Source: a virus (taxonomy: Duplodnaviria > Caudoviricetes). Taken from it: 58,886 nucleotides of DNA. Positions 27,701-54,197 of the stretch are shown piece by piece. The stretch is from positions 1 to 58,886 of the IMG/VR virus record IMGVR_UViG_3300008116_004701. One strand, given 5' to 3'. The notes beneath the pieces were generated by a model. That model was given only the letters and a program-made list of their open reading frames with translations, was not told the DNA's origin and did no database searches. The translations under genes were made by a program, and so were the position numbers. Every line of letters starts with the position of its first letter. The first letter of the stretch is position 1.

Positions 27701-29700
27701 AATTTTTCATAGGCTAACATTTGACTTTCAGAAGCTTCTGTTAATTTATTTTCAGGGTCGTATTTTTTACGAAGCTCCTGCATCAATTCTGCTTGGAAGT
27801 TAGCATTATATTTACTAGTAGTAGATCGATTAGCTTTTATTCGATCTAAGTACTCCCAAATGATGTCTTGAGTAATAAGCCCTGCTATATCTGTTTCTTC
27901 AAACCCAAACATTACCATAGCACGTATTGCGCCAAAAGTATCTGAGTTAATATTTAGTTTATCAAGAATCTGCTCTTTTTCGTTATCTACTGCAGTAGAC
28001 TGTAGTGCTCGAATAATTGCTGATTTAAATTTAAGAGACTCTTTTTCTTCTTTAGTAAGCTCACGTTTTTCTGCTTTAGCTCTATTAATAAGAGCTTGAG
28101 ATTTAAGAGTATATGGATTAGACATATCTCCTTTAGAAACAAACTCTCCAAATGTTGCTACAGGCATATTAGCTTCTGCTAACTCTTGTGCAGTAGGAAT
28201 ACGTGGATTCATTGGTGTACCAAATAATTCTACATACGCTTCGTCATTAAGATTTTGATAAACTAAATCTTTGCCTTGTGCATTAGCATTAAAAGTAGAA
28301 TCAAGAGAAAATGATCCTACACCATCTTTACCTGCTGTTGCATTAATGTATTTAGTACGTTGATAAATATCAGAAAGAATAGTAACAGGTGTAGGGTTTA
28401 CACCCTTCTCGGAACGTATTTTATTTACTTCTGCAGCTAGACCTGTAAATTCTCCAGAACCATCAAGTGCAATAATACTAGCAATCACTTCAGGGTTAGT
28501 ACTAGTCATTACATCTAAATGGATATCTAAGATCTTATTCTGTTTAGCTGCTACATAAGAACGATTTAAGATCGATAAGCGATCTATTAATGTTTCGATT
28601 TGACCAGGCTCTAGAAATTTTTTATCCAAACTTCTTGTGATAATTTCATTAGCTTGCGACGCCAAAGTAGAATCAATATCATCTTTTTCTTCATTACTGT
28701 CTATAGTATTCTTAATGTAATCTCTTAGTATTTTATTTTCTTCTTTTGAAAGCTTTAATCTTTCTTGTATATCGTTTAAAGTTTCTTTAGCAATCTTAAT
28801 TTGCGCTTCTATTTTTTTAGGATCAGATAGAAAGTTAGTATATAGCTTGCCATTTTGATAAAAATGATTGTACATGTATGTGTACAATTTATCAACGTCA
28901 AAGTCGGACCCCATTTGTTTAGTAAAATCTCTAGGCGCTAAGACTAAATCCCCCATTGCTTCTGGTAAAAATCCTACTATTTCTACAGCAGCCATAGAGT
29001 TACGGCTTTGAGTAGGAATACGGAATCCAAATAGTTGAAGTAGTTTTTCAGGAACTTTAGTAGTGTCTAATAAACCATCTTTTGTTAAAAATTCCTCTAT
29101 GTTCAAGATTTCTCCACGCTCATTGCGAAACTTAAATGGAATCATAATTTGAGCAGGTAACATTTTACCTGTTGCAGGATCTACACGCAAAGGTTGTAAC
29201 CCTTTAGTAGCATCAAATTTATTTGTGAATACGATATCAGAATTCTTTAAATCTCCTGCTGCAGCATCACCTTCTTTAATTTTAATCCCTTCTTCAGAGC
29301 CGAGTACATAAGAATTACCCGTAAACTTTTGTTTAACTACTTTATTACTAACGAGTGACGTAAGTAAACTTTCAAATTTATCTGCATAAGGAGATGCCCA
29401 CAAAGGAATTTTAAAGTTTTGTTTGTCTTCTGTTAATTCTAAAGCAGACAACATGTTAGGCGCATATCCTTGGCGAGTTTTGATTTCTTGAGCAAGAATC
29501 TCAGCAAGTTTAACTGCGGGAATTGTAGTTCTTTCTATGATTTTTTTGTCAGCAACTTTAACTTTAGAGCTATCTTTTTTAAATCCTGGAAGACTCAGCT
29601 TACCGTTAGCAACTAAAGTATCTAAAAGGCCTTCATTTAAAAGTGCCTTAAATTCATTTTCAGAGACCCAACGACCCCCTACAAAGTACTGACAAGCCAT
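24706..29700 (-). CDS. Virion RNA polymerase catalytic (beta'-like) half fused to zincin and NADAR domains, 1664 aa
   Basis: FRIPTQ..NS and GSDFDVDKL (DxDxD at 28891-28905, compare phi14:2 gp66 DFDID), AVDNEK. Zincin: AHELIH...EFV. NADAR: LSNF...TVEGAFQAAK...AKALGR...W...M...F.QNP...LLATG. Confidence 0.9.
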   Translation of the reverse strand: MACQYFVGGRWVSENEFKALLNEGLLDTLVANGKLSLPGFKKDSSKVKVADKKIIERTTIPAVKLAEILAQEIKTRQGYAPNMLSALELTEDKQNFKIPLWASPYADKFESLLTSLVSNKVVKQKFTGNSYVLGSEEGIKIKEGDAAAGDLKNSDIVFTNKFDATKGLQPLRVDPATGKMLPAQIMIPFKFRNERGEILNIEEFLTKDGLLDTTKVPEKLLQLFGFRIPTQSRNSMAAVEIVGFLPEAMGDLVLAPRDFTKQMGSDFDVDKLYTYMYNHFYQNGKLYTNFLSDPKKIEAQIKIAKETLNDIQERLKLSKEENKILRDYIKNTIDSNEEKDDIDSTLASQANEIITRSLDKKFLEPGQIETLIDRLSILNRSYVAAKQNKILDIHLDVMTSTNPEVIASIIALDGSGEFTGLAAEVNKIRSEKGVNPTPVTILSDIYQRTKYINATAGKDGVGSFSLDSTFNANAQGKDLVYQNLNDEAYVELFGTPMNPRIPTAQELAEANMPVATFGEFVSKGDMSNPYTLKSQALINRAKAEKRELTKEEKESLKFKSAIIRALQSTAVDNEKEQILDKLNINSDTFGAIRAMVMFGFEETDIAGLITQDIIWEYLDRIKANRSTTSKYNANFQAELMQELRKKYDPENKLTEASESQMLAYEKLGDMSGEQLLENLKETKFNPTKSTDYNIGQLMILNKFLKLDGIGEEIKKIQSAINTASKGIPKSLLETNTKVTQIENLPLSNVFNANSLLGTIENKEFVPTTISGYASKYGTMFANNIYAPYFPYNTDGFQTIFKEVLKHIPSGDKVIASSTKLSDVQTEIFQDIKSYFYSNEGSSLFLGNPDEERARLFIDKEGENKSLATILQELSTQPWYQNNQFLNKLTFNFNSNGDVSRINFESSNAANFDERSIYAGFAYLLSKNVPLGNFNGIDYTTRLLAQDLITAAFLEGGIQGSKQYMRYIPIGYLKTLGFGNYLQGIPFDFERTFGGIVDDLGNPIYSMPSSFTRQYIQNNPNLAKTISLGDLKGKVSTVPESFELDKEALERNFVSVVDPVSGDMTETQTHFLTIRDDNKNNKSKYALYEFDESTRKYNRIPVLQGTYGFTQYNSQNAVVVPVYQPKIKDNKPSVVAPGTTIQGVLVKPTKTFDPNIVNNPVQQTPPNQLGVDTNMSGKRAFDDLVDRLLSDPTVSTTNKLLLEKLHSLIFPEGFKFEFVKEAGVRGRYEYATKTLFINLNHQNHKTVNDLANTVAHELIHTFTGEAIRDYQAGRMDKLTAEQVKIIDNLKALQLSYINYLETQGNRNELNEFIEKFNTWAKADPATRTPFTTDKGLSKYYGAIKLTEFVTMALTDQGFQAWLNKVKVEDKSMMDKLKDLLLQLLNSLGIDIKAGTALASAVKETIDLIDSTQRKSLQDDVFFAPAPGIKATLTGFDTTTEPSILSNTTINIYAGTGENAELSNFAVRPFKSVVTIHGTFNTVEGAFQAAKFRYSSMGIGDRLPIVLELMNVTGAKAKALGRTITGLDTKEWDKNSSRIMKELLKESFEQNPDALAKLLATGNATLTHTQDKTKWGKEFPKLLMEVRDELRSIQTPAQPFTNKLDTSKISPAVKKKSLPSGFQEKDTFTPSPDDWEAFNRAFSDEFLATREMDEDMYEKYLLICGK

Positions 29701-29705
29701 AGCAA

Positions 29706-30182
29706 TTATTTATTAAGTAGTTCTTGATCGAACAACAACATGTTATCAGTAAGCGCTAAACGAGCAAGTAAATCCATGTACTCACCTACTGCTCCTACTT
29801 GATGAGTAGTAAAGTCTTGTAGTAACAATCTTACTTTCAGAGAAAGATCCATTTTGCAAGCAGATTCTTCGTATGCCATAAGCAAATCACGCTCCATTTC
29901 GTATGCCATCTCTAAAGCACCTTTAACATCTGTGCAATCACACTTCACAGCATCTAAAGCATCAGTAGAAAGTTCTCCGCCTAAATCGTTGCAGAACTTT
30001 TCGATTTTATTATAATGATCTCGTTCTCCTAAAGACTCTTCAGTAAATAATTTTTCAGCGCCAAAGTAACCATTAGTCTTCATACGATTTGCTAAATGCA
30101 AATACGTATGAGAAGCAGTAAGCTCTAGACGGCCAAATTTATTGAGTTCTTTTTGTTCAATATCGGTAAGTAGCTTTTCCAT
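29706..30182 (-). CDS. Ferritin-like protein
   Basis: ELTASHTY, GY.G...F..ES..ERDH..K, ALE.E, Q..A and FDQ.L have ferritin spacing; 158 aa. Confidence 0.88.
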   Translation of the reverse strand: MEKLLTDIEQKELNKFGRLELTASHTYLHLANRMKTNGYFGAEKLFTEESLGERDHYNKIEKFCNDLGGELSTDALDAVKCDCTDVKGALEMAYEMERDLLMAYEESACKMDLSLKVRLLLQDFTTHQVGAVGEYMDLLARLALTDNMLLFDQELLNK

Positions 30183-40908: not shown

Positions 40909-43900
40909 TTATGAATTTTTACCTTTATTTGCTCTACGTGCTGCAGCTGCTGCATTTAGTTTATCTGCAATACTTATATATCTAAAATTACCTGCATAGT
41001 CAGGAGCTATTGTTTGCAAATATTTTTCTTGTAAATCTGTGCTAGATAATCCTTGAGCAATTTCACTAGCTTGTGTTAAACCTGCAGCTAACATATTTTG
41101 TCTAGCAGATAAAGCTTGATCATTATACTGTTGAATAGCTAAATCTTGTGTCATATTATTAGACTCTACTTGAGCATTAAATTTATCTGCTTCCATTTTT
41201 TGAGCCTTGTCAAAGTTTTCTTTTTGTGCATAAATATCACGAATAGCTTGTTGACGCATATTAGCCATGTTGCCTAATGTAGCTAAGTAACTTCCTGCAC
41301 CAGGTGCTGCATTTTTAGCAGCTTGCATTGCAGTACCATAAGCACTGCGGACTGCTGCTAATTGCGGATCTACGTTCATTTCATAAGGAGAAATTTTAGC
41401 ACGAGACTGATAGTCGCTAACATCTAATTGATTTACTTTACCAAAAAGACCACGACCAATATTATAAAGTGCAGGTAATGCAGAAACTCCCGCTAAAATA
41501 GGATTTTGTTCTATAGATTCTAAACCTGTTTTTTTATCCATTTTAGTGAGCATTTTTCGTAATTCAGATGCCCACTCATCATCACTCATTCCTTCAGGTT
41601 TTACTAGACCATTACTTGCAGCAGCATTCATAATAGCTTCGTCTTCTTGTGCAAGTTTTTCTACTTCTAATAAATCAGTATCATCTCCTTCTTCAGCAAC
41701 AACTTCAGTAGTAGATACATCAATAGGGTTACTTAAACTAGCATAATGTTCTTCTAAAGCTGCTTTTGCCATTTCAATATCTTGACTGTCAAACTTTCCA
41801 TCTCCATCTGCATCAGCTCCTTCTGGCATAAAACTTTGAAGGATTATAGGATTATTTAATGCTTCCTCAATTGTAAGACTAACGGGAACTCCTTGAATAT
41901 TAAATGTAGCTTTTGGTCCAGTAATAGGATCTAAAGAACTTCCTTCTGCAAACTGATTAGTAAACATACCAGTAGTAGGTGCTCCTAAATAGCCTCCCTG
42001 TGCCATGAAATTTCCTGCGACATTCATCGCTTTAGTAATAAATGGGTTTTGAGGAGCGTTCATTAATTTAGCAGCAGCTTTACTTCCTTCAAGAGCTCCT
42101 TCTGGGATTACTTTTTTATCTGGAGAACCACCAAAGAATGTACCGTACATTGAACCTAATTGTCCTACACCTTGTGCTACTTTATCTGTTTTTTCTCCTG
42201 TACCTGGCAAAGCAGCAACTCCGCTAGCTAAACCTTCTACACCTTCACTAATAGCTGATTTAGTAGTAGCACCACCCGTTAGTACTGCAGAACCAAGAGC
42301 ACCTGCTGCATTACCAAAACCTCTTGCAGCATCTAGACGACCTGCCTGACGTTCATCAACATCTCCTATTTGAGATAGTTTTTCGTATCCTTTGTCTGTA
42401 AGATTGTCAGTAGTACCAAAAGTAGCTGCATCTAGTACACCTTCTCCGATACCATAAAGCGCAGAACCGATACCACGTAGGGCCATCATGCCTCCACCTG
42501 CACCGTACATATGACCGCCCATGTTATACATCTTACCCCCCATGCTCATTATACCTTGTTGTTGCATTTGTTGCATCATTGCTGGGTCTATTTCTTGTGG
42601 CATTCCTGCTGGAGGAGCCATTTGTTGTTGCTGCTGCATTGCCATCTCGTCTGCCATTGCTTGTTGGTCCGCCATAGCTGCTTGATCTACTATTTGTAAA
42701 TCAGGATACTTAGATTGCATTTCTGCAACAGCTGCTTGTTTTTCAGACTCTTTTTGCTGCTCTTGCGCTTGCATTAAGTTTTCTAAATCACGTTGAATAG
42801 CAACTTGTTCAATAGTATCATTTTCACGACGAGAATTTGGACGATTTAATTTCTTAGAAATATCAGCAAATGTTTTTCCTATATCTCCTTTAGGCAAATC
42901 GTATAGAGTAGCAGTTTCTTTAGATACTTTAATCTCATCTGAAAAAATATAATCTGCTGCATTAAGTTTAGTTTCACCTTGTTCTACAAGATTTAATTTA
43001 CCATCTTGTGCAAATCCTTGTGGAATGCCTCCTAGCGGATTTATTTCATGGGAACCTCCTTCATTAAATTCAGTAAGTTGTCCGCCATCAGCAAACGCTC
43101 GACCTCCCATGGAGTACATATGGCCTCCCATAGCATGTTTAACATTATGTGCTTTACCACCAATACTAACCTTTTGGTTACCTGGTGTTCTTTCAAATTC
43201 TCCTGTAGCATGTCCATATGCTAACCATGCTTTGTATGCGGCTGGTGATTTAAAGTTCATAGCGCCTCCTTGTTTAAAATTATTTTCTCCCAATCCTTCT
43301 GGATCGTTAGGGTCATATATAATAGGTTCTACATTAGAACCTGATTTTGTTGATGGTACATAAATATCTTCTGCGTTTTTATTCCAACGTTTATCTATTG
43401 GGCTAGCATTTACTTTAGGACCAAAATCTCCATAAGGATCTCCTCCTTGTATTTGTAAATTTTCTTCGCCGCCTTTATCTGCTCTTCCTAAGAATGAAGT
43501 AAGAGGCGACATATTAATGTCTGGCATATTAATATGAGGAGTCTCTATTTGTTGTAAGGGAAATCTAATTCCTACTTCACCCGAAACATGAGGGCGAAAC
43601 ATAGTTCCTAATGTTTTATCCATAGGTCCCGCACCTGTAGTATTAGTACTATTATTGCTGTTTTGATTAGGATCATAGTTAGGGTCTTGTCCTATAGTAT
43701 TAGAAATATTAGCAGCATTTTTAGATGCAGCCCCAAACCCACCTGTTAAAGCAGCTTTACCATAAAAAGACATAGGAAAATCCTTAAATGCTTTAGGTCT
43801 ATATTCTCCTTCAGCACGAATTCCCCAACCAAGTTTTGCTCCTTTTGTTGAATTTAAAGTAAAACCTGTATAAGGTTCGATAATGCCTGATGGTCTACCT

Positions 43901-44619
43901 GCTTTTACTAAACCATTTCGATAAGGATTTCCAAAAGGAAATACACTTCCTACTTCTCCATGCAATCCTAAACCTGTTGACGGAGCATACTCTCCACCAA
44001 ATTCAATACGTGGCATAGCGCTTTCAAAAATAGCGCCGCCTCCAACTTCTTGTCCTCCTTTAACAACTTTACCTTGCCAACCTATTTTACCTCCTGCTAT
44101 AATATTTTGAGCATTAGGAGCTCCTCCGAGTAAAGCATCTTTGTTATTAGTAATATTTGTGATACTATTCTGATAAGCCTGTTCTTCAGGACTTAATGTA
44201 GTATTAAATGGTATACTTGGATTATACTGTTGCCCTGCATAGGCACTAGCATAAAATCCTGGAGCCTTTTTGCCTAAACCAGAATCTGTCTCAATACCTG
44301 CAATATAACCAGGCTTAAAGTTTCCTACTAATGCATTAGTATAAAAGGGACTAGCATAAACATTAGCTGTTGGATTTTTCTTATAAAATTTTTCCATAAG
44401 ATCCTCAATAGGACCCCCTTCAGCGTAAGTTTGAATATTAGAAGCTTTAAAACTACTCATCTTACCACCATGACTCATTTGATTTTTAATCTTTTTTTCT
44501 TGTGCTAACATTTCTTTTGTAGGTTTCTTTCCAGAACCTGCATTAGCACGAATATTATCCCATAGCCCTCGTGGACTGTATGAGCCGTCAGCACGTTTAA
44601 TAAGATCTTTTTTAGCCAT
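40909..44619 (-). CDS. Modular cargo protein with multiple Phi-xx-GG motifs, 1236 aa
   Basis: GGSHEINPLGG..VEQGET..DYIFSD domain, Q/M-rich linkers, Gly/Ala helices, no Cys. Confidence 0.75.
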   Translation of the reverse strand: MAKKDLIKRADGSYSPRGLWDNIRANAGSGKKPTKEMLAQEKKIKNQMSHGGKMSSFKASNIQTYAEGGPIEDLMEKFYKKNPTANVYASPFYTNALVGNFKPGYIAGIETDSGLGKKAPGFYASAYAGQQYNPSIPFNTTLSPEEQAYQNSITNITNNKDALLGGAPNAQNIIAGGKIGWQGKVVKGGQEVGGGAIFESAMPRIEFGGEYAPSTGLGLHGEVGSVFPFGNPYRNGLVKAGRPSGIIEPYTGFTLNSTKGAKLGWGIRAEGEYRPKAFKDFPMSFYGKAALTGGFGAASKNAANISNTIGQDPNYDPNQNSNNSTNTTGAGPMDKTLGTMFRPHVSGEVGIRFPLQQIETPHINMPDINMSPLTSFLGRADKGGEENLQIQGGDPYGDFGPKVNASPIDKRWNKNAEDIYVPSTKSGSNVEPIIYDPNDPEGLGENNFKQGGAMNFKSPAAYKAWLAYGHATGEFERTPGNQKVSIGGKAHNVKHAMGGHMYSMGGRAFADGGQLTEFNEGGSHEINPLGGIPQGFAQDGKLNLVEQGETKLNAADYIFSDEIKVSKETATLYDLPKGDIGKTFADISKKLNRPNSRRENDTIEQVAIQRDLENLMQAQEQQKESEKQAAVAEMQSKYPDLQIVDQAAMADQQAMADEMAMQQQQQMAPPAGMPQEIDPAMMQQMQQQGIMSMGGKMYNMGGHMYGAGGGMMALRGIGSALYGIGEGVLDAATFGTTDNLTDKGYEKLSQIGDVDERQAGRLDAARGFGNAAGALGSAVLTGGATTKSAISEGVEGLASGVAALPGTGEKTDKVAQGVGQLGSMYGTFFGGSPDKKVIPEGALEGSKAAAKLMNAPQNPFITKAMNVAGNFMAQGGYLGAPTTGMFTNQFAEGSSLDPITGPKATFNIQGVPVSLTIEEALNNPIILQSFMPEGADADGDGKFDSQDIEMAKAALEEHYASLSNPIDVSTTEVVAEEGDDTDLLEVEKLAQEDEAIMNAAASNGLVKPEGMSDDEWASELRKMLTKMDKKTGLESIEQNPILAGVSALPALYNIGRGLFGKVNQLDVSDYQSRAKISPYEMNVDPQLAAVRSAYGTAMQAAKNAAPGAGSYLATLGNMANMRQQAIRDIYAQKENFDKAQKMEADKFNAQVESNNMTQDLAIQQYNDQALSARQNMLAAGLTQASEIAQGLSSTDLQEKYLQTIAPDYAGNFRYISIADKLNAAAAARRANKGKNS

Positions 44620-44640
44620 GGTAAGTTTTAAAGAATAAAG

Positions 44641-47571
44641 TTAACAGTTTTTATTAAGTTCACCACCAAATAAATAGGGGTTAGCAATACTAAAATAATA
44701 TTTAGGTACACTTGGTTGATGCATTCTATTATGATAATTAATCATATTAGGAATATTCTTTTTAGGTATTTTATTTCCTTTAAGGTCTACTATTTTATCA
44801 AATCTAGAAATTGAAGGAAAGTATTTATTAGGCATTTTTGTAAATCCTTTATATAATACACCTTTTTGTATATCATCGACATTACCAAGATATCCACGTT
44901 CTACATCACTTGCTACTCGATCTAATTTAAACTGTAGGTCTTTTGGTAATATAACTTCCATTTCTTGTGGAAAATGTTGTATATTACTTGCATTAGGATA
45001 CATATAACTTTGTCCTGCAGGAGCATTAATTACATAATCTAAATTTTCAGCTCTTTGAGTAAATCCTGTTAAAGGAGCTTCAAATCCTAAAGTTGTTTCT
45101 GGTTTAGCTTTTATTACACTAGTACTAGTAAAAGATTTAGGAACAAAAAGATCTCCTTCCTTTAAATCAGAAAATTTTAAATCTTGTAAAGTTTCTCCAT
45201 TTCTAATAACAAATCCTTCATTATTTATATCAAAATTTTTAGTTCCTCTAATTAAACTTTGAGGTTGTTGAAATTTATTTTTTAAAATACTTTGCTCTAA
45301 TATAGGAGCAATTTTTTCTTGATAAAAAGGAGCAACTTTTTCTGCTTCTCTCGTATTAATTAGTTGATCGTATCCTCTAGCATAAGCATCTAATACTAGC
45401 TCTTCTTTTTTAGTTAAATCTAATGTTGGTTTATGAGTTTGTAAAAAATCTGAATGTATTTCTCTGCTAAGCGCTGGCATATATTCGCTTTCAGCATTTC
45501 TTACTGTTTCTCTTGTAGGAATAAACTCTAACTCTTTTAACTTTCCGTACAATCCTACATCTTTAGGATTAAGTTGATAAGTAGGAATATTAAATTGTTT
45601 AGAAAATTCATCTGCGTATTTATTAACTAAAAATTGCTCTTCTGCTTTAGGAATAATAAATCGTTCATTAGTAGTAATTGCTTTTTCTTGTGCTTCTTTC
45701 CAATCTTTTAAACTAATTGCTGGAGCTTCTGGATCAAATAACTGTTTGCTTAATTTAGCAGGATTTCCTCCAATTGGAGAACTTGCTCCATAAACAGTAA
45801 CACCAGAAGCATCTGTTAAATCTCCATATTCATCAATAGTGCCTACTATTTTTTTAGCAGCAGGAGCATCTACTAAAGTTTTGCTATTAACAAATGTTGG
45901 AGCATTCATTGATTTAATAATGTTACTAGCATTTTTTATTGGTATTCCTGCTCCCGCAAAATCTAAGCCTGTAAGTCCTGTTTTTAATGCTGCTTCTTTC
46001 CAATCCATGTTACCTGCAGCAACATCTTGCCAATCTTGATATCTGTTGTCAATTTGAGTAGCTCCATGAACAAGTCCTGCAGCATTTGCTACACCTCCAA
46101 GATTTACTCCTGCACCTAAAGGAATACTTGCAGCAGCTCCTAAAACTTCTGCAGCTATAGGCGCACCTATTATTGCTTGAGGTACCCAATTTGCAGCTTG
46201 TGCTGCTTGAGGCTTTAACGAACCGTCAGGCATATATAAACCTGAAGTGCCTGATTGTTTATGAACATTAGCAACAAATTGTTTTGCTGCTAAATCTTGC
46301 TCCCCTTGTTGCTGTGCTTTATTCCACACTGCTTGATTCATAACAGGTTTAGGTGCTCCTTGTACTGGTGCATTGTATACAGTTGCATATTTATTTAATA
46401 GTGCAGCACGTTCTCCTGTTGGATCATTAATAGGTACATATTGATTTCCTGTAGAAGCATTACTAATAGCCCAACCTTCTGGTGTTCTTTGGTAATAAGA
46501 TCCTGGTCGTTTAGAGTATGTGTAGATAGGACCCCCATCATCATAATGTTCTCTAGCATCAGAACCATATTCACTAGGTTCAAAATGTATAGTACCTCCT
46601 TGTCCGTATTCTTCTGTAGTCTCCCCTTCTCTTTGAATATATGCACTATTTCTAGTTTCAATTCCTGGGATAGGAATATATCTTCTTTTACCAGGTTTAA
46701 TTAAATCTCCACCATGTCCAGGTTGTCTAAACCTTGGAAGTCTATAAGGAATTCTATTGGCATCCCAGTCTATATATCTTTCTGTTTGATTGACCCATTC
46801 TGCACCTGGATCAGGGGTAGCATACATAGAAGTCTCATCAATATTATATTGCGGCATAATACCAGGATATTCTGCTGGTGGTATAGGGGGTGTAGGTGGG
46901 ACTAGCGGAGGACCTGGAGGAATAGGTGTTGGAATAGGTATAAGTTGTTCTGTAATAGGTGTAGGTTGTATTACTTCTTTTGTAATTAACGGAGTTGGTT
47001 TAATAATTGTTTTATTATTAACCTTACTTTTTGGTTTATTTGGAGTAGGTTCAACAAACTTAACACGCTGGACAGGACGGTCAAAACTAAATCTTGGAAG
47101 TACATTTTGTCCATATGTTCTAAAATAAGGAGTTGGACGAGTTGGTTTGTTAACTACATCTTGTAAAAGAGGATTGTTTTTTCTACTTTCCCAATATGCA
47201 CGCTGTGCATCAAGTTCGTCCCATGCTTGAAGACCATCTGCAGGAGAATTATGTCTGCTTCTTATACGGCCTGTTGCGTTGTCATCTGCTAATCTTTTAG
47301 CAGCAGTAAATTCATTATTAAGTTTAAAAATAGTCAGACTATCATCATAAGCTGCTTTTCTGTAAGCATACTCTTTAGGATCAGAAGTAACAAATGGTTC
47401 TACTCTTTGTGGTTTTTTATTTTTTTTATTTTTATCGCGGTCACGATTATATTCACTAATAGTTGAATCTAGTGTACCTCCTTGAGCAAAAGGCAAAGCA
47501 GTAGTGTCTCTAAAGATTGGTGTGCCTTTTGACTGATAATAAGTAGGCAGTATTTTTGGAGTCTTTTTCAT
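44641..47571 (-). CDS. Cargo protein with C-terminal ADP-ribosyltransferase domain (VIP2/Alt-like, R-S-ExE), 976 aa
   Basis: Y...Y..IN, LIRG, FTSTS, INAPAG, EMEVILP; preceded by a Gly/Ala hydrophobic hairpin and a Pro-rich linker. Confidence 0.85.
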   Translation of the reverse strand: MKKTPKILPTYYQSKGTPIFRDTTALPFAQGGTLDSTISEYNRDRDKNKKNKKPQRVEPFVTSDPKEYAYRKAAYDDSLTIFKLNNEFTAAKRLADDNATGRIRSRHNSPADGLQAWDELDAQRAYWESRKNNPLLQDVVNKPTRPTPYFRTYGQNVLPRFSFDRPVQRVKFVEPTPNKPKSKVNNKTIIKPTPLITKEVIQPTPITEQLIPIPTPIPPGPPLVPPTPPIPPAEYPGIMPQYNIDETSMYATPDPGAEWVNQTERYIDWDANRIPYRLPRFRQPGHGGDLIKPGKRRYIPIPGIETRNSAYIQREGETTEEYGQGGTIHFEPSEYGSDAREHYDDGGPIYTYSKRPGSYYQRTPEGWAISNASTGNQYVPINDPTGERAALLNKYATVYNAPVQGAPKPVMNQAVWNKAQQQGEQDLAAKQFVANVHKQSGTSGLYMPDGSLKPQAAQAANWVPQAIIGAPIAAEVLGAAASIPLGAGVNLGGVANAAGLVHGATQIDNRYQDWQDVAAGNMDWKEAALKTGLTGLDFAGAGIPIKNASNIIKSMNAPTFVNSKTLVDAPAAKKIVGTIDEYGDLTDASGVTVYGASSPIGGNPAKLSKQLFDPEAPAISLKDWKEAQEKAITTNERFIIPKAEEQFLVNKYADEFSKQFNIPTYQLNPKDVGLYGKLKELEFIPTRETVRNAESEYMPALSREIHSDFLQTHKPTLDLTKKEELVLDAYARGYDQLINTREAEKVAPFYQEKIAPILEQSILKNKFQQPQSLIRGTKNFDINNEGFVIRNGETLQDLKFSDLKEGDLFVPKSFTSTSVIKAKPETTLGFEAPLTGFTQRAENLDYVINAPAGQSYMYPNASNIQHFPQEMEVILPKDLQFKLDRVASDVERGYLGNVDDIQKGVLYKGFTKMPNKYFPSISRFDKIVDLKGNKIPKKNIPNMINYHNRMHQPSVPKYYFSIANPYLFGGELNKNC

Positions 47572-50500
47572 TAGAAGATTTGATAATCAAAGTACGACAC
47601 TAATTTATTCATGATAAGTTCTTTATCATAAGAATTATCAAAATATAAAGTTACAATAAAATAAGTACTGCGTAGACGTCCTTGTCGAACATTACTGTTT
47701 TGATCTCTAGGAATTTTTAAGCGCCATTTATCAAACTTGCGTTTAAATCTTTCAGGACTAAATGGTACTATATCTGTATCTTGATATTGGTTATAAACTC
47801 TAAAACCTGTTAATGTTTGTGTACGATCTATAATCTTATTGTTGTCTCTAACTATAGAATTAAATTCTAAAGTTCTTAAAACTTTATTTACATCAGCATC
47901 AGGATTAATAACTAACGTTAATTCTGTAGAAGCTAAACGATTATAGAATACACCCCAAGATCCTTTATTACTTGTGAATACTTTTTTATTAGCAAGTGGA
48001 TCAGGACTCATTAAAATGTTACCGTTATTAATCCAAATCGGTGGAGTAGTAGTATATCTTGAAGAAAACTGTTGTGCTAATTCGTCATACACAAGTGTGT
48101 TAGAATTAAATACTTGATTTTCCGTAGCTTCTATACTATTTGCATAAAGTAAGTTAACGTTTGTTCCTGTATCATTACCTGTTGTAAACTCATTAACTAC
48201 ATAGTAGTAAACCTCATTATATAATATAATGTCTTCCATTGCATAAGAAGTATTACGCAAAAGACTTTTAATAAAGTTTTTACTTAAAAAAGTAAATAAT
48301 ACTTCATCATTAATTACATCTTTTGTGATATGTACTCCGTATCCTTTAATAGGATTGTCTCCATTATTTTCTTTACGTAAGAATACTCCAGCAGGTAAAT
48401 TTTGTAACCAACTGTGCATTCCTTTTACTTCAGAAATAGGAAGACTTAATGGACTACCTTCTCCAGGTGATTGTAATGTAAATATTTTTCTATGAAAAGC
48501 ATCAAAAAAGTAAATACCCATTTCTGTAGCATCAACTGCCCATTGATGAATACATCCATGTACTTTAGAATGATAAATATGTTTACCAAATCCTAATCCT
48601 GTACCAAGTTGTGTCGGTACTCCATCTGCTGTAGTAGTTACAGCAGCACGATTAATTGTATAAGTACCTATTCCTTTATCTTGAATAAAAAATACTAAAT
48701 CCTTCCAGTTTAATATTTTATTGATAGGACCATAATCATCAATATCATAAAAGTTATTAGCTCCAAACTTTGTCCAAGAGTCGATAACTTCTTCATTAAT
48801 TTTTACATTAGACAAATACGCCCTAATATCATTAGCACCACTATAGATTAAATTTTGTGGTTTTATAAAAAATCCAACATCATCTTTTTCTGCAGAGTAA
48901 ACAAAATTGTATTGATACATGTCTAATACTTTAGCATAAGCTGCTTCTGCATTATTAGTTTCTTGTCTAAGAATTACGCTGCGTTCTGTATCAAATTCAT
49001 ATTTAACATTAGTACGAATATTGGCGCCGTAATCTAAGTCTATATTAATAGTAGACTCTATAGGAAATGCTTGAGTCTGTGCTTTGTTCTTACGGTACAA
49101 ATCATTAGCAGCATAAAAATCTTTATTAAACTCTATTAATCCTGTAGAAATAACTGCCATATTAATAAATGTATCTCCTCCAAAAACTACAGGAGAAGTA
49201 TTTGCTACATCAATTAATGGAGATGCAGGAATAAATTTATTAGACTCTAAACTATTTAATGTATAACCTCCATATACTTCAAGCTTTGGCAATAAAGTAT
49301 CTATGATAGGATAATAATTTTCATAATCTGTTAATGGAGCATATGTAGAAGAATTTAACGGCTTGATAAAAGATGGTGCTGCAAAGTAATCTACAGATGG
49401 TGGAGTAGGTACAGGATTACCAGTAAAAAAGTCTACTGTAATCCTGCCTATTTTTCCTGCTATACTAGAACCTGATTTATAAAACTCAGGTCGAGTGTTA
49501 TTAATTCCTTGCTGTGGCCTATTAGGATTTACTTGTGGATCTGCTGTGTCTTCATAGTCATCCATACACCAATAATTACGCATATAATAGCTACCAAATA
49601 AAGGCGTTACTTTTTGTGTATAATCACTAGTGTCTTCCATGCGGAATAGTTGGTTAATTTGCCACTTTCTAATATTTTGTACAGAATTAAAGTTTACAGG
49701 AAATACTTTTCTAAATTGCTTTCTTGTGTCTATACAATTATCTGAAAGTCCTATTGCACTGTAATCTTCTGAATCTGTATATGAAACAAATGTTCCTAAA
49801 GCCCCTGTAACAAGTAAACATGGGTTACTTCCTATATTAGTAATACTAGATATGTTACTGCTGTTAAAAGAGACATCGGGGGAATAAAAGTTTACATAAT
49901 TTCCTAATCTTTCAAAATTTGCAAATTGTGGTACATAACTAGTGTCACCAAATACAGCAAAAGATCCATTATCGTAAATAGTATAAGGTCCAGAACCTTC
50001 TGGATAAAAAGGATATAAGTGTAGCACATTACCGTTTCCATCTACTTGTAAATCAAAATCTGATCCTGATGGCGGTGATATTACTGGATTATAATAAAAG
50101 TTTTTAAGAATCCCTTGAGACACTCTTCTAGTATCTGCTATATCTCTTTTAAGTCTTACTATTTGATAGCTTTCTACTTCGTTAAGTAAACTAGGACAAG
50201 TAGAAAAATCAAGAGTAAATTTAATACCCATAGCATAACCGTAAGTTGTATCACCTGTTCCAGGAATACTTAATGGCCAGTGAGTAGTGCCTGAGTTATT
50301 AGTAACACTATCTCTTTCAGAAATATCAGGAAATTTGATATCTCCAATATATTCAACAAAACTAGCTTCTCCTTTTTTAGTATAAAATACTATTCCAAAT
50401 CTATAAGTTTCTCCACGTTTATAACCACGCAGTAATCCTGAAATAAAGGGCGATGCATAGTTAGGAAAAGTAGTATTAGCGTAATCTCCATATCCATCAT

Positions 50501-51878
50501 TTAGATTATGTGCTGGAGAATCTGGAGTACTAGGTACTTGAGTTACACCTGGTAATCCAAAACCACTCATAGGAGTAGAATCTATAGTATATTGTTCTAA
50601 GTGAAAAGTATAAGAAATGTTTGGGCCTTGTCCTCCTAAACGAAGTCCGTCAGACTTATATCTATATTGACTGTTTGTATGCCAAGTATTATTCCAGTGT
50701 GCATCAGAGTTATAGTCTACATTAAAAGCATTTAATAAATCGTTAGTTGCAGTACCTGGTGTATAAGGAGGTATTGGACTACCACCGTTATATTTATATC
50801 GTCTTGTTTTTGCATCAAATGTTTCACCTGGTGCTAATAAATCTTGAATACTTACTAAAGATTCTTTAATATTAGCAATGACTAGAGACCCATCTTTTTG
50901 AGTAATAGTTTTAGGCGTTTTAAACTGATAGTTTTTAGTAATAAAATCAAATAGTTCTACATCATAAGAAGAGCTTTCTGTTCCTGTATAAATAATAGAG
51001 ATTGTATTTGCACCATCAAGAGTAACTTGCTCTATACTTGTTACTACTGGTGCAGCAGTTACAGAAGATTTGTAAATAGATAAAAATTCTATTTTATAAA
51101 AATCTTGATAGTTTGTAGTATCTATCTTAATAGTAATAGCTTTACCTGTATTAATAGGTGTTGGGTCTCCATTGTACGTATAAGAATTACCACTCTCTGC
51201 ATCAGATACAATGTGTACTATATTACTTGGAGGGGCTACTAAAGTTTCTTTTCCGTCAGAAGTAATAAGCTTGTAGCTAATTTGATAAGTGCCACCAATT
51301 AATCCTCCACCGCTAGTTATACCTGTAATTAAAGGTTGTGTAAATATTACATCAGGAAAAATATCTATTAATCCTACTGGAGTTGTAGCAAGATTAACAT
51401 CTTTAGTATTTACGGATCTAAAAAAATTATTATAGTCTGTCCAATAGATTCTTTGAATATTCTCAGACTCATAACGACCTAATGCTTCAATTGGCCACTC
51501 TTTTTTAAAATTAAGATTTGCACTGTAATACAATAATGTAGGACCTGAAGTAATAGTACTATCAGCGGGGTTATATTGTACATCATAAATCCAGCCTTTA
51601 GTACCAGAATCATCTGCAACAAATAATATAATTCTAGTACGAATTGTAGCATAACCAATAATTACTGGATTAGTTGCTGTCCATGTTCCTGGAGGATCAC
51701 TGTCTAAAGGCAAACTAAAAGCATATTCGTTGCCTTTAATATTAGTAAATCCTCCTAATGATTCTCCTTGAGTTGTAGTAATTCGAACATTTAATGCATC
51801 TATATAAAAAGTCGGCGCTATACTATCGTAGGCCGTATCTTTATTCATCCCTTGGTAACTATTTGCGTGTTGCTTCAT
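47571..51878 (-). CDS. Tail stabilisation / muzzle-like protein
   Basis: 1435 aa, beta-rich: GMNKD, YIDALNVRI, IYWTD, GYKRGETYRFGIVFY, FGGDTFI, YGPI; position after the ring proteins. Confidence 0.85.
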   Translation of the reverse strand: MKQHANSYQGMNKDTAYDSIAPTFYIDALNVRITTTQGESLGGFTNIKGNEYAFSLPLDSDPPGTWTATNPVIIGYATIRTRIILFVADDSGTKGWIYDVQYNPADSTITSGPTLLYYSANLNFKKEWPIEALGRYESENIQRIYWTDYNNFFRSVNTKDVNLATTPVGLIDIFPDVIFTQPLITGITSGGGLIGGTYQISYKLITSDGKETLVAPPSNIVHIVSDAESGNSYTYNGDPTPINTGKAITIKIDTTNYQDFYKIEFLSIYKSSVTAAPVVTSIEQVTLDGANTISIIYTGTESSSYDVELFDFITKNYQFKTPKTITQKDGSLVIANIKESLVSIQDLLAPGETFDAKTRRYKYNGGSPIPPYTPGTATNDLLNAFNVDYNSDAHWNNTWHTNSQYRYKSDGLRLGGQGPNISYTFHLEQYTIDSTPMSGFGLPGVTQVPSTPDSPAHNLNDGYGDYANTTFPNYASPFISGLLRGYKRGETYRFGIVFYTKKGEASFVEYIGDIKFPDISERDSVTNNSGTTHWPLSIPGTGDTTYGYAMGIKFTLDFSTCPSLLNEVESYQIVRLKRDIADTRRVSQGILKNFYYNPVISPPSGSDFDLQVDGNGNVLHLYPFYPEGSGPYTIYDNGSFAVFGDTSYVPQFANFERLGNYVNFYSPDVSFNSSNISSITNIGSNPCLLVTGALGTFVSYTDSEDYSAIGLSDNCIDTRKQFRKVFPVNFNSVQNIRKWQINQLFRMEDTSDYTQKVTPLFGSYYMRNYWCMDDYEDTADPQVNPNRPQQGINNTRPEFYKSGSSIAGKIGRITVDFFTGNPVPTPPSVDYFAAPSFIKPLNSSTYAPLTDYENYYPIIDTLLPKLEVYGGYTLNSLESNKFIPASPLIDVANTSPVVFGGDTFINMAVISTGLIEFNKDFYAANDLYRKNKAQTQAFPIESTINIDLDYGANIRTNVKYEFDTERSVILRQETNNAEAAYAKVLDMYQYNFVYSAEKDDVGFFIKPQNLIYSGANDIRAYLSNVKINEEVIDSWTKFGANNFYDIDDYGPINKILNWKDLVFFIQDKGIGTYTINRAAVTTTADGVPTQLGTGLGFGKHIYHSKVHGCIHQWAVDATEMGIYFFDAFHRKIFTLQSPGEGSPLSLPISEVKGMHSWLQNLPAGVFLRKENNGDNPIKGYGVHITKDVINDEVLFTFLSKNFIKSLLRNTSYAMEDIILYNEVYYYVVNEFTTGNDTGTNVNLLYANSIEATENQVFNSNTLVYDELAQQFSSRYTTTPPIWINNGNILMSPDPLANKKVFTSNKGSWGVFYNRLASTELTLVINPDADVNKVLRTLEFNSIVRDNNKIIDRTQTLTGFRVYNQYQDTDIVPFSPERFKRKFDKWRLKIPRDQNSNVRQGRLRSTYFIVTLYFDNSYDKELIMNKLVSYFDYQIF

Positions 51879-51880
51879 GA

Positions 51881-52702
51881 TTAGATAGCTGGGTTAGGAC
51901 CTTGTGCGTTTTCGCTTAGTGTATGAATTGTAGAAATAAGAGCCGAACCAGCTTTAGGACGGAACTTACGTTGCTCAGGAAGCTGCATATTAGCAAAGAA
52001 GCTAGCATGATCCTGCATAGCAGGAATAGTGCGTACAGTAGCATTTTTAACACTTTCTGCTTCGTCAACATTTTGCCATTGTTTAGCATGGTTAACTGCT
52101 TGTGCAAAATACCAATCTCGATCACGCTCAATAATTTGAAACTTATCAGCAGCTAATTCATTGCGTATCCAGAGTTTGCGTGCTATTTTGTACGCAACAT
52201 AGTGAGCTCCACCTTCTAACCATTGCTGTTCTGCAGGAATAGTAGGATAACCGCAATCGTCAGTAGGAATAGCACTATAGGAGATTGCTACAAAACCGCT
52301 ATCAAAAGAAGGAAAAATATATCCTTGGCCAACAGTATAAGTCTCTGCAGACTGTGATGTGTAATCTCTATCATCTAAATGATAACGTTTATGAAAGTAA
52401 TCAGTCTTCCAACGCATTGGATACATAGAACCTTTACCACATTCAGCTTCTTCTACACTATCAATACCTTGTATTTGAGCTACTTGTCCAATTTTATATA
52501 AATCAAATGGAAGATCTCCTCTACCATCACATATATGTACATAAGCAATTTGTTCAACCATTGTGACACCTACATTAGTGTGTGCCATAAACTCGGCCAA
52601 CCATTCTACTCCTTCTTCTTCTTGGACATCGTAGTTAAAGCCGAAATCCCTGATAACTTTATCAAGGATTGCTTTATAAGAAACATGTTGGCCTGAGTAC
52701 AT
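51881..52702 (-). CDS. Tail ring/tubular protein
   Basis: LP.DL, Y.V..GYI..SF..G.V.ISY.AIPTD..GYP.IP; adjacent to the stabilisation protein. Confidence 0.7.
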   Translation of the reverse strand: MYSGQHVSYKAILDKVIRDFGFNYDVQEEEGVEWLAEFMAHTNVGVTMVEQIAYVHICDGRGDLPFDLYKIGQVAQIQGIDSVEEAECGKGSMYPMRWKTDYFHKRYHLDDRDYTSQSAETYTVGQGYIFPSFDSGFVAISYSAIPTDDCGYPTIPAEQQWLEGGAHYVAYKIARKLWIRNELAADKFQIIERDRDWYFAQAVNHAKQWQNVDEAESVKNATVRTIPAMQDHASFFANMQLPEQRKFRPKAGSALISTIHTLSENAQGPNPAI

Positions 52703-52977: not shown

Positions 52978-53500
52978 AATAAAATGTTTTTCTGTTTGGG
53001 TCTTTGACAGTCTTAGCAATTAATCGCGAATATTGTCTAGACGGTTTAAAATTATAAAAACTTTTATACTTTAATGGCGCACTGTAATTATCCCAAAAGT
53101 GTTCATAGAACTCAGAGTTACTATGTGTGTTCTCATGGTATAATAACTTTTTGCCAGTTATTTCTGTAATTTCATCTTTTGTTTTTCCTGGGTAAAGTTT
53201 TTCCCAATAACTCCAGGTTGCTTGCCAATCTACTTTTAGACTCTTAGCTAACTTTCCATCTGCTCGAAAAAAGTGTAAATCTTTTGCTCTTACTCTTAAT
53301 TTTCCTACATACGGAATTCTTAATTCTAATCCTGTTGTAACTATTTCTGTACTATATAGTTGCAATAGTTCTTTATTAAATTTGTTAAACAGTTTGATGT
53401 CTATTGGGTTACTACTTCTTTCTTTGTAGTCTTTATAGAAATCTTGTTTCTTTACACTGCTTAGTATTTTACCTTTTCCCCGCTTTAAAAAATTATGCAT
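52970..53500 (-). CDS. IHF/HU-like DNA-binding protein, crAss-type
   Basis: ELRIPYVGKLRVR, VDWQAT, YHEN.H, FKPSR...R; sits within the tail ring genes. Confidence 0.65.
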   Translation of the reverse strand: MHNFLKRGKGKILSSVKKQDFYKDYKERSSNPIDIKLFNKFNKELLQLYSTEIVTTGLELRIPYVGKLRVRAKDLHFFRADGKLAKSLKVDWQATWSYWEKLYPGKTKDEITEITGKKLLYHENTHSNSEFYEHFWDNYSAPLKYKSFYNFKPSRQYSRLIAKTVKDPNRKTFYYG

Positions 53501-54197
53501 TTGTTACGTTTTGCTGTACTCTATCGTCATTAGCATTATTAGCATTATCTAGTGCAGATACTGTTTTCTGCATTAATTGTTGTAAAATATATGGTTTAAT
53601 ATATGCCCACATCCATTGATTTATTGGATAAGGATCGGACGGACTCCAACATTTTTGCTGTGTTTCACAGTTAATAAAATCACTAAGTTTTGTAGGATCC
53701 TCAAATAAACCACGAATAGTAATGTATTTAGTCATTAAGTATTCTGGACTCTTACTAATAAGATACATGTAACCATCATATAAAAATGCATATACAGACT
53801 TAGCTGTTGTGCGCCCATGTCCAATAAATGCTATTCTTGCATAATCAATTAATGAAATTCTTGCTTTAGTAATATCAGGAGAACCTACTGATACTATCCC
53901 TTTTGTAAAAAAGAATTCAATAGTATTAGGAATAGCTTTAGTAGTACGTAATACTTTACACCCTGTAGGAACAGTAATACAGCAATCAATAGGGTTAACG
54001 GGCTCTAATGTTACACAGGCTAATGTCTGTACTACATAAGGATCTATACTACGGTTTTTATTATACTCGTTACGTAACCAAAGAGATCTTTGCTCATTAA
54101 TTAAATCAGTATATAACTCATACGAAAAAGAAGATTCAATGGAGTTTATCGCCAATGATTCATCTATTTGTGCATGAAGATCTTCTAGAGTTAACAT
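53493..54197 (-). CDS. Tail ring/adaptor protein
   Basis: QTL.C..L..V...CC, IPN.I, YLY-like strand, I.GLFEDP, YPI. Confidence 0.65.
   Translation of the reverse strand: MLTLEDLHAQIDESLAINSIESSFSYELYTDLINEQRSLWLRNEYNKNRSIDPYVVQTLACVTLEPVNPIDCCITVPTGCKVLRTTKAIPNTIEFFFTKGIVSVGSPDITKARISLIDYARIAFIGHGRTTAKSVYAFLYDGYMYLISKSPEYLMTKYITIRGLFEDPTKLSDFINCETQQKCWSPSDPYPINQWMWAYIKPYILQQLMQKTVSALDNANNANDDRVQQNVTNA

Follow-up and report, generated by a model that had tools for sequence, protein, structure and literature searches.

A conserved Gly-Gly motif at cassette borders in the crassvirus cargo protein 1 family

We analyzed a 58,886-nucleotide stretch of viral DNA (IMG/VR record IMGVR_UViG_3300008116_004701; hereafter, the window) whose minus-strand block at 20.7-58 kb is, according to Pfam matches, the virion module of a crAss-like phage. 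The subject of this report is a short motif, Phi-x-x-G-G-x-Phi (Phi, hydrophobic residue; x, any residue), that recurs in the products of two adjacent genes of this block. These genes encode proteins of 976 and 1236 residues (P0002 and P0001, respectively), and both lie directly after the muzzle gene. P0001 belongs to the cargo protein 1 (C1) family, whose reference member is gp45 of Bacteroides phage PhicrAss001, and the motif is a hallmark of this whole family. Comparison of relatives indicates that the segments between motifs, here called cassettes, are exchanged at the motifs.

Two cargo genes downstream of the muzzle gene

The assignment of P0001 to C1 rests on its CARG1 domain (PF25725), which scores 104.4 bits against a cut-off of 27, and on a match over the same stretch to Protein Data Bank chain 7qog_M, "Cargo protein 1 gp45" of PhicrAss001 (E 3.3e-16). 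The gene order also agrees with that of the gp45 family, in that C1 lies downstream of the muzzle gene and ahead of the virion RNA polymerase block. The order in the window is muzzle, 976, 1236, 859 and 2702 residues. Past C1 are proteins of 859, 2702, 158 (ferritin-like), 1664 and 1335 residues, and the block from the 859- to the 1335-residue protein takes the position of cargo protein 2 (C2) and the virion RNA polymerase block in PhicrAss001. The 859-residue protein has no significant BLAST match to gp46 (C2; E 0.37). The portal gene is absent from the 58,886-base contig of the record. No close phage was found in GenBank, where matches are limited to the CARG1 domain at less than 60% identity, and PHROGs returned nothing useful for P0001, P0002 and 12 relatives.

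A model of P0001 made by AlphaFold2 with an orthologue alignment (mean predicted local distance difference test [pLDDT] score, 46) resembles beads on a string, with a confident beta-rich region, a helical C-terminal part and long low-confidence stretches between. G, M, Q and N abound in the linkers, which are disordered. The beta-rich region is predicted to be a closed antiparallel barrel resembling outer-membrane beta-barrels. Hydrophobic residues alternate in nine of its 10 strands, and its fold matches include OpcA (2vdf_A; Z 12.6, 188 residues aligned, root-mean-square deviation [rmsd] 6.0), the designed barrel TMB10 (8uzl_A; Z 12.0, 138 residues aligned, rmsd 3.1) and pOmpT, KdgM and autotransporter barrels (Z approximately 10). 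Foldseek placed porins or OmpA in all top rows to rank 13, but these matches are weak (E at least 5e-3). An ejection protein with its own outer-membrane-type barrel could make the first pore. Farther along the chain lies a Gly-rich hydrophobic stretch; the glycine zipper family PF13488 matched relatives P0065 and P0067 and gave no match in P0001.

P0002 comprises a conserved leader at its N-terminus, an extended disordered region, a small beta unit, a hydrophobic stretch rich in Gly and an ADP-ribosyltransferase (ART) domain. The leader follows the pattern MKK.PKNIPTYY...GTPIFRDTTALPF..GG, and residues M1, Y12, G16, R21-D-T-T24, F28 and G31-G32 are invariant among 16 sequences. It always stands at the start of the first open reading frame (ORF) past the muzzle gene, be that C1 or a split-off gene. 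When a leader profile was searched against 1.84 billion proteins, 129 cluster representatives matched at E no greater than 1e-3 (88 of them at E no greater than 1e-10), most at residue 1. Thirty-nine of the 129 were scanned for domains. The 34 among them with an N-terminal leader included 11 with CARG1 and one each with ADPrib_exo_Tox, ART-PolyVal and YkuD; other homologues of P0002 have SET or tail-lysozyme domains. The first cargo gene thus serves as a polymorphic enzyme carrier. The leader itself may sit at the muzzle gate and exit first.

In the ART domain of P0002, R775, S816-T-S818 and E870-M-E872 occur in the expected order of R, S-T-S and E-x-E, which we take to be the catalytic motifs of the ADP-ribosyltransferase exoenzyme family, and the domain looks intact. 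Its only match among Protein Data Bank sequences is weak (5urp_A, E 0.15). The model of P0002 is poor (mean pLDDT 42, with residues 1-347 almost wholly below 50), and a fold search with it found no chain at Z of at least 5. A separate observation is that the 1664-residue protein of the virion RNA polymerase block has a NADAR domain near its end (residues 1456-1576; PF08719, E 6e-13). The virion module thus encodes both an ADP-ribosyltransferase and a domain linked to ADP-ribose removal.

Several relatives that are 1.6-2.2 thousand residues long (P0049-P0052 and P0056 among them) carry the leader of P0002 and the N-terminal peptide of P0001 in one chain, and in these fused forms the P0001-type peptide comes directly behind a motif. 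In the window, the P0002 frame stops at a TAA codon, and the next ATG, which is the start of P0001, follows seven codons on in the same frame. This gap looks like the scar of a gene split just past a motif. P0002 thus carries the N-terminal part of C1, here on a gene of its own, plus an ADP-ribosyltransferase, and both genes form one system. Fusion of the two products by read-through was considered and rejected, given the TAA stop, the mixed frames and several stops in 14 related loci, and the lack of any tRNA found in the window. Coordinates of these and other features are listed in Table 1.

Table 1. Features of the two cargo genes and their surroundings in the window. Conservation refers to 47 aligned C1 orthologues.
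Feature	Residues	Position	Strand	Basis or remark
Tail ring protein 2		53493-54197	-	Pfam
Tail ring protein 1		51881-52702	-	Pfam
Muzzle protein gene		47571-51878	-	PF25731, E 1.3e-137; cargo genes directly after
P0002, 976-residue cargo protein		44641-47571	-	ORF; Pfam PF03496; between muzzle gene and C1
N-terminal leader	P0002 1-27	47491..47571	-	Invariant residues; runs straight into first motif (about 32 residues to Gly-Gly, within 47437-47571)
FAQGGTL	P0002 28-34	47470..47490	-	Deletion junction in relatives
YGQGGTI	P0002 322-328	46588..46608	-	17 local alignments end at residue 326, 11 start at residue 322
YDDGGPI	P0002 343-349	46525..46545	-	Junction in P0129
ADP-ribosyltransferase domain	P0002 718-889	44905..45420	-	PF03496, 28.3 bits vs. 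cut-off 23.4
YLFGGEL	P0002 966-972	44656..44676	-	Four residues before C-terminus; kept in ART-bearing relatives
TAA stop of P0002 to ATG of P0001		44620-44643	-	Same frame
P0001, 1236-residue cargo protein 1 (C1, gp45 family)		40909-44619	-	Pfam PF25725
N-terminal cassette, basic peptide of RADGSYS..GLWDNIRAN..GSGKKPT type	P0001 1-47	44479..44619	-	Relatives
MSHGGKM	P0001 48-54	44458..44478	-	G51, G52 conserved in at least 90%
YAEGGPI	P0001 65-71	44407..44427	-	Y65, G68, G69 conserved in at least 90%
Beta-rich cassette, predicted 10-strand barrel	P0001 82-357	43549..44376	-	AlphaFold2 pLDDT 70-86
FKQGGAM	P0001 448-454	43258..43278	-	G451, G452 conserved in at least 90%; 18 local alignments start at residue 448
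Short cassette NFKSPAAYKAWL... (40 residues)	P0001 455-494	43138..43257	-	Swapped or absent in orthologues
Heptad run HAMGGHM (495), YSMGGRA (502), FADGGQL (509), then FNEGGSH (518)	P0001 495-524	43048..43137	-	N-terminal edge of CARG1
CARG1 domain	P0001 495-629	42733..43137	-	Pfam PF25725; 7qog_M match
Heptad run MSMGGKM (691), YNMGGHM (698), YGAGGGM (705)	P0001 691-711	42487..42549	-	Up to 6 heptads in relatives
Gly-rich hydrophobic stretch, glycine-zipper-like	P0001 712-800	42220..42486	-	Relatives align to residues 700-830
MAQGGYL	P0001 872-878	41986..42006	-	G875, G876 conserved in at least 90%
FAEGSSL, decayed copy	P0001 890-896	41932..41952	-	Orthologue consensus FAxGG
158-residue ferritin/rubrerythrin-like gene		29706-30182	-	Amid large virion polymerase-block genes
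1664-residue virion-RNA-polymerase-block protein		24706-29700	-	NADAR domain, PF08719
DUF2201_N putative metallopeptidase with VWA-like domain		9828-11012	+	Replication block
Partial ORF at contig edge		3-689	+	Spore photoproduct lyase, PF20903, E 4e-18

A motif of the whole C1 family

The original prediction, which was made from the letters of the window, had listed 16 heptapeptides in these two proteins and had proposed that they lie in linkers and bracket distinct units, with enrichment over the rest of the proteome as a check. All 16 are located on the minus strand as placed, with four copies in P0002 and 11 plus one decayed copy in P0001, although they extend to 41932 rather than to the 41938 at which the predicted span had begun. 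FAEGSSL is considered decayed because the aligned orthologues have the consensus FAxGG there. The enrichment proved genuine. The pattern [FYM]xxGG occurs 10 times in P0001, four times in P0002 and only four times across the other 39 window ORFs of at least 100 residues. When each protein was shuffled 20000 times, P0001 gave a mean of 1.93 and never reached 10, and P0002 gave a mean of 0.44 and reached four in 14 shuffles. Hydrophobic residues occupy both flanks at eight of 23 Gly-Gly sites in P0001 and at four of seven in P0002 (shuffle means, 0.61 and 0.16), values that were reached by none of 50000 shuffles of either protein in which the Gly-Gly positions were held fixed. Codons vary from copy to copy, which indicates that the peptide is conserved and that there is no DNA repeat; this variation rules out a DNA-level repeat or microhomology as the origin of the motif.

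The motif extends well beyond the window. Homologues of P0001 number 689 at E no greater than 1e-5, and every one of the best 120 of these contains 3-27 copies of [FYMWH]xxGG. From 1200 distinct instances, we derived the consensus N-[M/E]-[Y 52%, F 32%, M 15%]-[A 33%]-x-G-G-x-[M 30%, L 18%, I 12%]-Y. The alignment of these instances has real information at the downstream hydrophobic place, and it shows peaks of Gly seven residues off on both sides. Correspondingly, 113 of 1196 distinct neighboring pairs lie exactly seven residues apart, with tandem runs of up to six heptads. The Gly-Gly pairs are invariant or at least 90% conserved in the 47 aligned C1 orthologues. The residues of P0001 that are invariant in this alignment include G505, F509, A510, G512, G513, F518 and G521 in the first heptad run and its extension, a region that aligns to gp45 residues 424-450, and G694, G695, G701, G702, Y705 and G708 in the second.

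Neighboring genes provide a contrast. In 70 distinct IMG/VR loci found by means of the CARG1 domain, C1 ORFs contain 525 copies in 67,643 residues, or 7.8 per 1000 residues, and the lowest density of any C1 ORF is 2.9; in 460 ORFs situated two or more genes from C1, the density is 0.44. The corresponding values are 1.1 for the upstream neighbor (usually the muzzle gene), 1.6 for the next gene and 0.43 for the one after. The upstream neighbor has fewer than four motifs in 60 of 68 loci, where its median length of 1365 residues is muzzle-like; in the other eight loci it is motif-rich and represents a split form like that of the window. PhicrAss001 gp45 has three strict copies and four with an aromatic residue directly before Gly-Gly, and the strict form is found neither in gp46 nor in the muzzle protein of that phage. 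No description of the motif was found in the literature searched, which mostly excluded subscription journals, and the accessible parts of the PhicrAss001 virion report (PMC10172136) do not mention it.

As predicted, the motifs cluster in linkers. In the AlphaFold2 model, all 12 motif cores of P0001 lie in stretches with pLDDT below 50, which constitute 62% of the model. The comparison also covered 37 Pfam domain matches in the family (CARG1, glucosaminidase, lysozymes, YkuD, glycine zipper, DUF5872, DUF5754 and ART). The motif lies inside none of them, except that it is found at the N-terminal edge of CARG1 in three. The gap between a motif and the domain that it precedes is 0-8 residues for CARG1 and DUF5872, 13-16 residues for DUF5754 and the glycine zipper, and 39-74 residues or more for larger enzymes. 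The heptad array is always directly ahead of the glycine-zipper stretch.

In the window, the units so bracketed are the basic peptide at the start of P0001, the beta-rich cassette, the 40-residue cassette and a P0002 block (residues 350-965) that contains the ART domain. Searches of Pfam with four short cassettes gave no match at E up to 10. Two side observations concern cassettes in relatives. In P0050, P0051 and P0058, Gly-Gly motifs of the N-terminal linkers alternate with a second short pattern, ".YAS..G.YY", which is also present in two predicted barrel strands of P0001 (residues 86-95 and 121-131). Also, cassettes in P0185, P0190 and P0204 match DUF5872 and DUF5754, families that the accessible literature we searched mentions only for giant viruses and polinton-like viruses.

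Exchange of cassettes at motifs

Whether modules between motifs swap among relatives had been suggested as a check of the original prediction, and the comparisons bear this out. The beta-barrel cassette is missing in P0031, P0033, P0035 and P0046, and in P0031 and P0033 the missing part is bounded exactly by the YAxGG and FKQGGAM motifs. The same cassette is doubled in P0009, P0010, P0021 and P0044, each of which has a motif at the joint, and is doubled in P0040 as well. The interval from FKQGGAM to the next motif occurs in five states among orthologues: the NFKSPAAYKAWL cassette, a KGKFTASA...WQHAQGG cassette, an FNNKGF.SLP cassette, a stub, or nothing. A short cassette of the NFKSPAAYKAWL type lies after CARG1 in P0078 and P0082, and the order of cassettes is permuted in P0078, P0082, P0093, P0100 and P0104. 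The N-terminal cassette of P0001, which is internal and preceded by a motif in fused relatives, is found elsewhere in P0093, P0100, P0103 and P0109.

P0002 provides similar examples. Residues 35-321 are missing in P0125, P0127, P0130, P0132 and P0133, whose sequences are joined exactly at a motif, such that the motif at residue 28 aligns to both flanking motifs. In P0129, the deletion is joined one motif further on. Gene splits are likewise located at motifs in P0066, in P0054 and in the window. Of the 359 internal BLAST alignment ends counted for C1, 137 lie within a motif (7% expected); for P0002, the count is 41 of 189 (2% expected). Relatives carry glucosaminidase, lysozyme, YkuD, SET or ART-PolyVal beside CARG1 or the leader. 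Relatives thus differ in that whole cassettes have been lost, doubled, exchanged for others, reordered or placed on genes of their own, with the motifs as breakpoints.

Other genes of the window deserve brief mention. The ferritin/rubrerythrin-like gene sits amid the large genes of the virion polymerase block, and an ORF cut off by the contig edge has a match to spore photoproduct lyase. The DUF2201_N putative metallopeptidase, which has a VWA-like domain, is encoded in the replication block and is the only protein-protease candidate of the window; apart from it, the only protease-like gene is that of an M15 endolysin.

Role of the motif and comparison with known systems

The interpretation that we favor, with a probability of roughly 0.45, is that the motifs are uncleaved hinge-and-clasp junction elements of the crassvirus ejection protein C1. 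C1 would be a chain of small cassettes, each able to work independently, with natively unfolded linkers in between. In this phage, the cassettes would be the leader, basic peptides, the outer-membrane-like beta-barrel, the portal-docking CARG1 domain, the glycine-zipper stretch and the ART effector, and relatives have cell-wall hydrolases and other enzymes instead. The Gly-Gly pair would act as a free backbone hinge in each linker, and the hydrophobic residues on either side (counted from the first Gly, Y/F/M at -3 and M/L/I at +3) would form a small sticky patch. Twelve chains would lie extended along the portal channel and tail lumen in the virion and leave it in unfolded form at infection, under a push from behind. 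Because the same joint would end every cassette, cassettes could be inserted, lost, duplicated, permuted or split without harm.

Support for this proposal comes in part from PhicrAss001, in which C1 (gp45) reportedly extends from the capsid, by way of the portal, as far as the tail barrel (PMC10172136, PMC10136315). The restriction of the motif to the one protein that follows this path argues for hinges and clasps. Also, both assigned ordered pieces of gp45 start at a motif: the tail-barrel helix at residues 214-245 comes after SAYGGPL (206-212), and the portal-bound domain at residues 425-552 opens with AFGGWL (PMC10172136). The stretch of P0001 that is homologous to the portal-bound piece (residues 468-562) has pLDDT below 50 when modeled alone, and its being left unfolded by AlphaFold2 fits folding on binding. 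From these data, together with the conservation of the motif, its position in linkers and the exchange of cassettes, we infer the hinge and docking role and the absence of cleavage.

Several points weigh against this interpretation. The ordered pieces that start at a motif are two segments of one structure, and the pattern was noticed post hoc. A strict requirement for two glycines also fits a protease site. Counts of breakpoints at motifs are inflated, because the homologues are inter-related and alignments tend to end at conserved words, and so overstate the number of independent events. By BLAST coordinates, the left edge of the beta-barrel deletion lies about 20 residues past the motif. 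C-terminal copies of the motif are not enriched in leader-bearing proteins (eight of 62 nonredundant proteins, compared with 7.7 expected), and the idea that such copies serve as a C-terminal tag was dropped.

The original prediction had instead explained the motifs as protease cleavage sites or capsid-loading tags, and neither mechanism is supported. A general loading tag is unlikely, in that other large virion proteins are without the motif: none is found in the presumed cargo proteins of 859, 2702 and 1335 residues, and two are found in the one of 1664 residues. Cleavage requires more discussion. The proteases of adenovirus and African swine fever virus cut at Gly-Gly-X, and C1 and P0002 might similarly be polyproteins from which the cassettes are released, in the virion or once ejected, by cuts either at Gly-Gly or beside it. 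The Gly-Gly pairs are strictly conserved within otherwise variable linkers, they stand at cassette borders, and the 32-residue leader ends in one; moreover, natural gene splits at motifs show that cassettes work as separate chains. Phage polyvalent proteins have been proposed to be processed by zincin peptidases (PMC5512222), and the window has its putative DUF2201_N metallopeptidase. However, many motifs occur as tandem heptads, with no cargo between them to release, and Pro follows Gly-Gly in 10% of instances. The modeled portal-bound segment of gp45 (residues 425-552) spans AFGG, TQGG and NEGG (PMC10172136), which, with the runs of up to six heptads, departs from the single sites of Gly-Gly-X polyproteins. 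No processing of gp45 is reported in the accessible literature that we searched, and gel electrophoresis (SDS-PAGE) band data for gp45 were not found in the text or supplements searched of PMC6235969.

Nor was a matching protease found. Pfam scans of the 41 window ORFs found none of C48, C39, S78 and MPTase-PolyVal (PF18818), and the same four were found in none of five related records (84-91 kb, one with terminal repeats, judged 64-70% complete). C5 peptidase was likewise found in none of these five, but the control for that search was silent, and DUF2201_N is present in just two. We therefore consider cleavage sites to be an unlikely explanation. Even less probable, in our estimation, is that C1 and P0002 are true polyproteins whose Gly-Gly joints are cut during or after ejection by a yet-unrecognized protease, be it of phage or host origin or autocatalytic. 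Were this so, one injected chain would free an outer-membrane pore, hydrolases of the cell wall, small conserved peptides (some related to members of the giant-virus families DUF5872 and DUF5754) and cytoplasmic effectors such as ART, and the phage would have an "effector magazine" with its own processing code. The earlier proposal of a polyprotein magazine of injected effectors is thus retained as regards modular strings, crassvirus virion cargo and an intact-looking ART, and finds no support as regards cleavage.

Other explanations leave the chain uncut. FG repeats of nucleoporins and kinked aromatic segments of low-complexity domains cohere through aromatic residues, and by analogy the motifs could be cohesive stickers by which the twelve chains are held together inside the tail lumen and portal channel, either as a bundle or as a gel-like plug. 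The composition of the disordered linkers and the multivalent, tandem arrangement of motifs are compatible with this idea, as are the confinement of the motif to the channel-threading protein and the reported cargo zones that are without ordered density while a rod-like feature fills the portal (PMC10172136). We nonetheless find stickers improbable, because single copies are conserved in position and the invariance of Gly-Gly is stricter than is usual for sticker-and-spacer regions. The motifs might alternatively act after ejection, as turn or strand elements of an envelope-spanning conduit (for example, in multi-chain beta hairpins) or as membrane-interface anchors near the glycine zipper. 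C1 has been proposed as a channel former (PMC10172136), the heptad array consistently adjoins the glycine-zipper stretch, and inter-motif pieces of relatives repeat the YAS..G.YY pattern of the barrel strands. Heptads are, however, too short for membrane-spanning strands and are assigned no structure by AlphaFold2, and many copies adjoin soluble enzymes; such a role is a shade more doubtful than that of stickers. Least probable is that the motif has no function of its own and is the conserved end of an ancestral repeat unit that was duplicated and kept as a harmless flexible linker. Cassette duplication is indeed common, and the period-7 arrays resemble repeat expansion, but Gly-Gly and its hydrophobic flanks are kept across proteins that share approximately 30-40% identity or a single domain, and only one copy has decayed in this phage.

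Whatever its exact role, the motif marks joints between interchangeable blocks and thereby shows how the injected proteins are assembled and diversified. Few gut phages are as abundant as crassviruses, and in the one solved virion just fragments of C1 are seen. A family-wide joint motif provides a parsing rule for giant proteins that otherwise resist annotation, through which cassettes, new injected enzymes and the conserved leader may be recognized, and it explains the mosaic evolution of C1 proteins.

The closest known system is gp45 itself (PF25725; Protein Data Bank entries 7QOG, 7QOI, 7QOJ, 7QOL and 8CKB). Like P0001, it has a CARG1 domain, a gene downstream of that for the muzzle protein, a Gly-rich hydrophobic stretch and Gly-Gly motifs flanked by hydrophobic residues; resolved segments of gp45 start at two of these motifs (PMC10172136). 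Identity between the two proteins is approximately 39%, over the domain only, and just one of the gp45-like orthologues in the locus set covers the N-terminal half. Unlike gp45, the phage studied here has an added beta-barrel cassette, heptad arrays, and the N-terminal part on a separate gene with ART.

Three further systems show partial likeness. Polymorphic toxins have border motifs, such as VENN of CdiA and PxxxxDPxGL of Rhs, and there too a short conserved motif stands at the border of exchanged variable modules. However, those proteins have one border each, before the C-terminal toxin, whereas C1 has many, between all kinds of cassette, and there is no likeness in sequence. The sites of the adenovirus protease and of pS273R of African swine fever virus resemble the C1 motif in that Gly-Gly and an upstream hydrophobic residue occur in virion proteins. 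They differ in that the hydrophobic residue of C1 is one place further from Gly-Gly, that the copies are in tandem, and that no C5 (with its silent control) or C48 peptidase was found. Lastly, T4 Alt is an ADP-ribosyltransferase that is packaged in the head and injected (PMC5512222). The ART of P0002 would similarly be a virion-carried, injected effector, as recognized here from sequence, but unlike Alt it belongs to the Pfam family of exoenzyme C3/VIP2 type and is fused to a C1-type leader and linker parts.

The broadest comparison is with polyvalent proteins, which are large, packaged, multidomain proteins that combine ART and cell-wall-attacking domains and undergo extensive shuffling, as C1 does (Iyer et al. 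2017, PMC5512222). The accessible text of that report contains neither "crAss" nor "linker", and hence describes no junction motif. The MPTase-PolyVal peptidase proposed for polyvalent proteins was not found in the window ORFs and related records noted above. Several unrelated effector or enzymatic domains do occur in one packaged polypeptide of this family, with ART in this phage and other enzymes in relatives, and one leader-bearing relative has the ART-PolyVal domain of the polyvalent proteins themselves. The joint motif also connects C1 of crassviruses with the broader concept of phage proteins that are polyvalent and injected.

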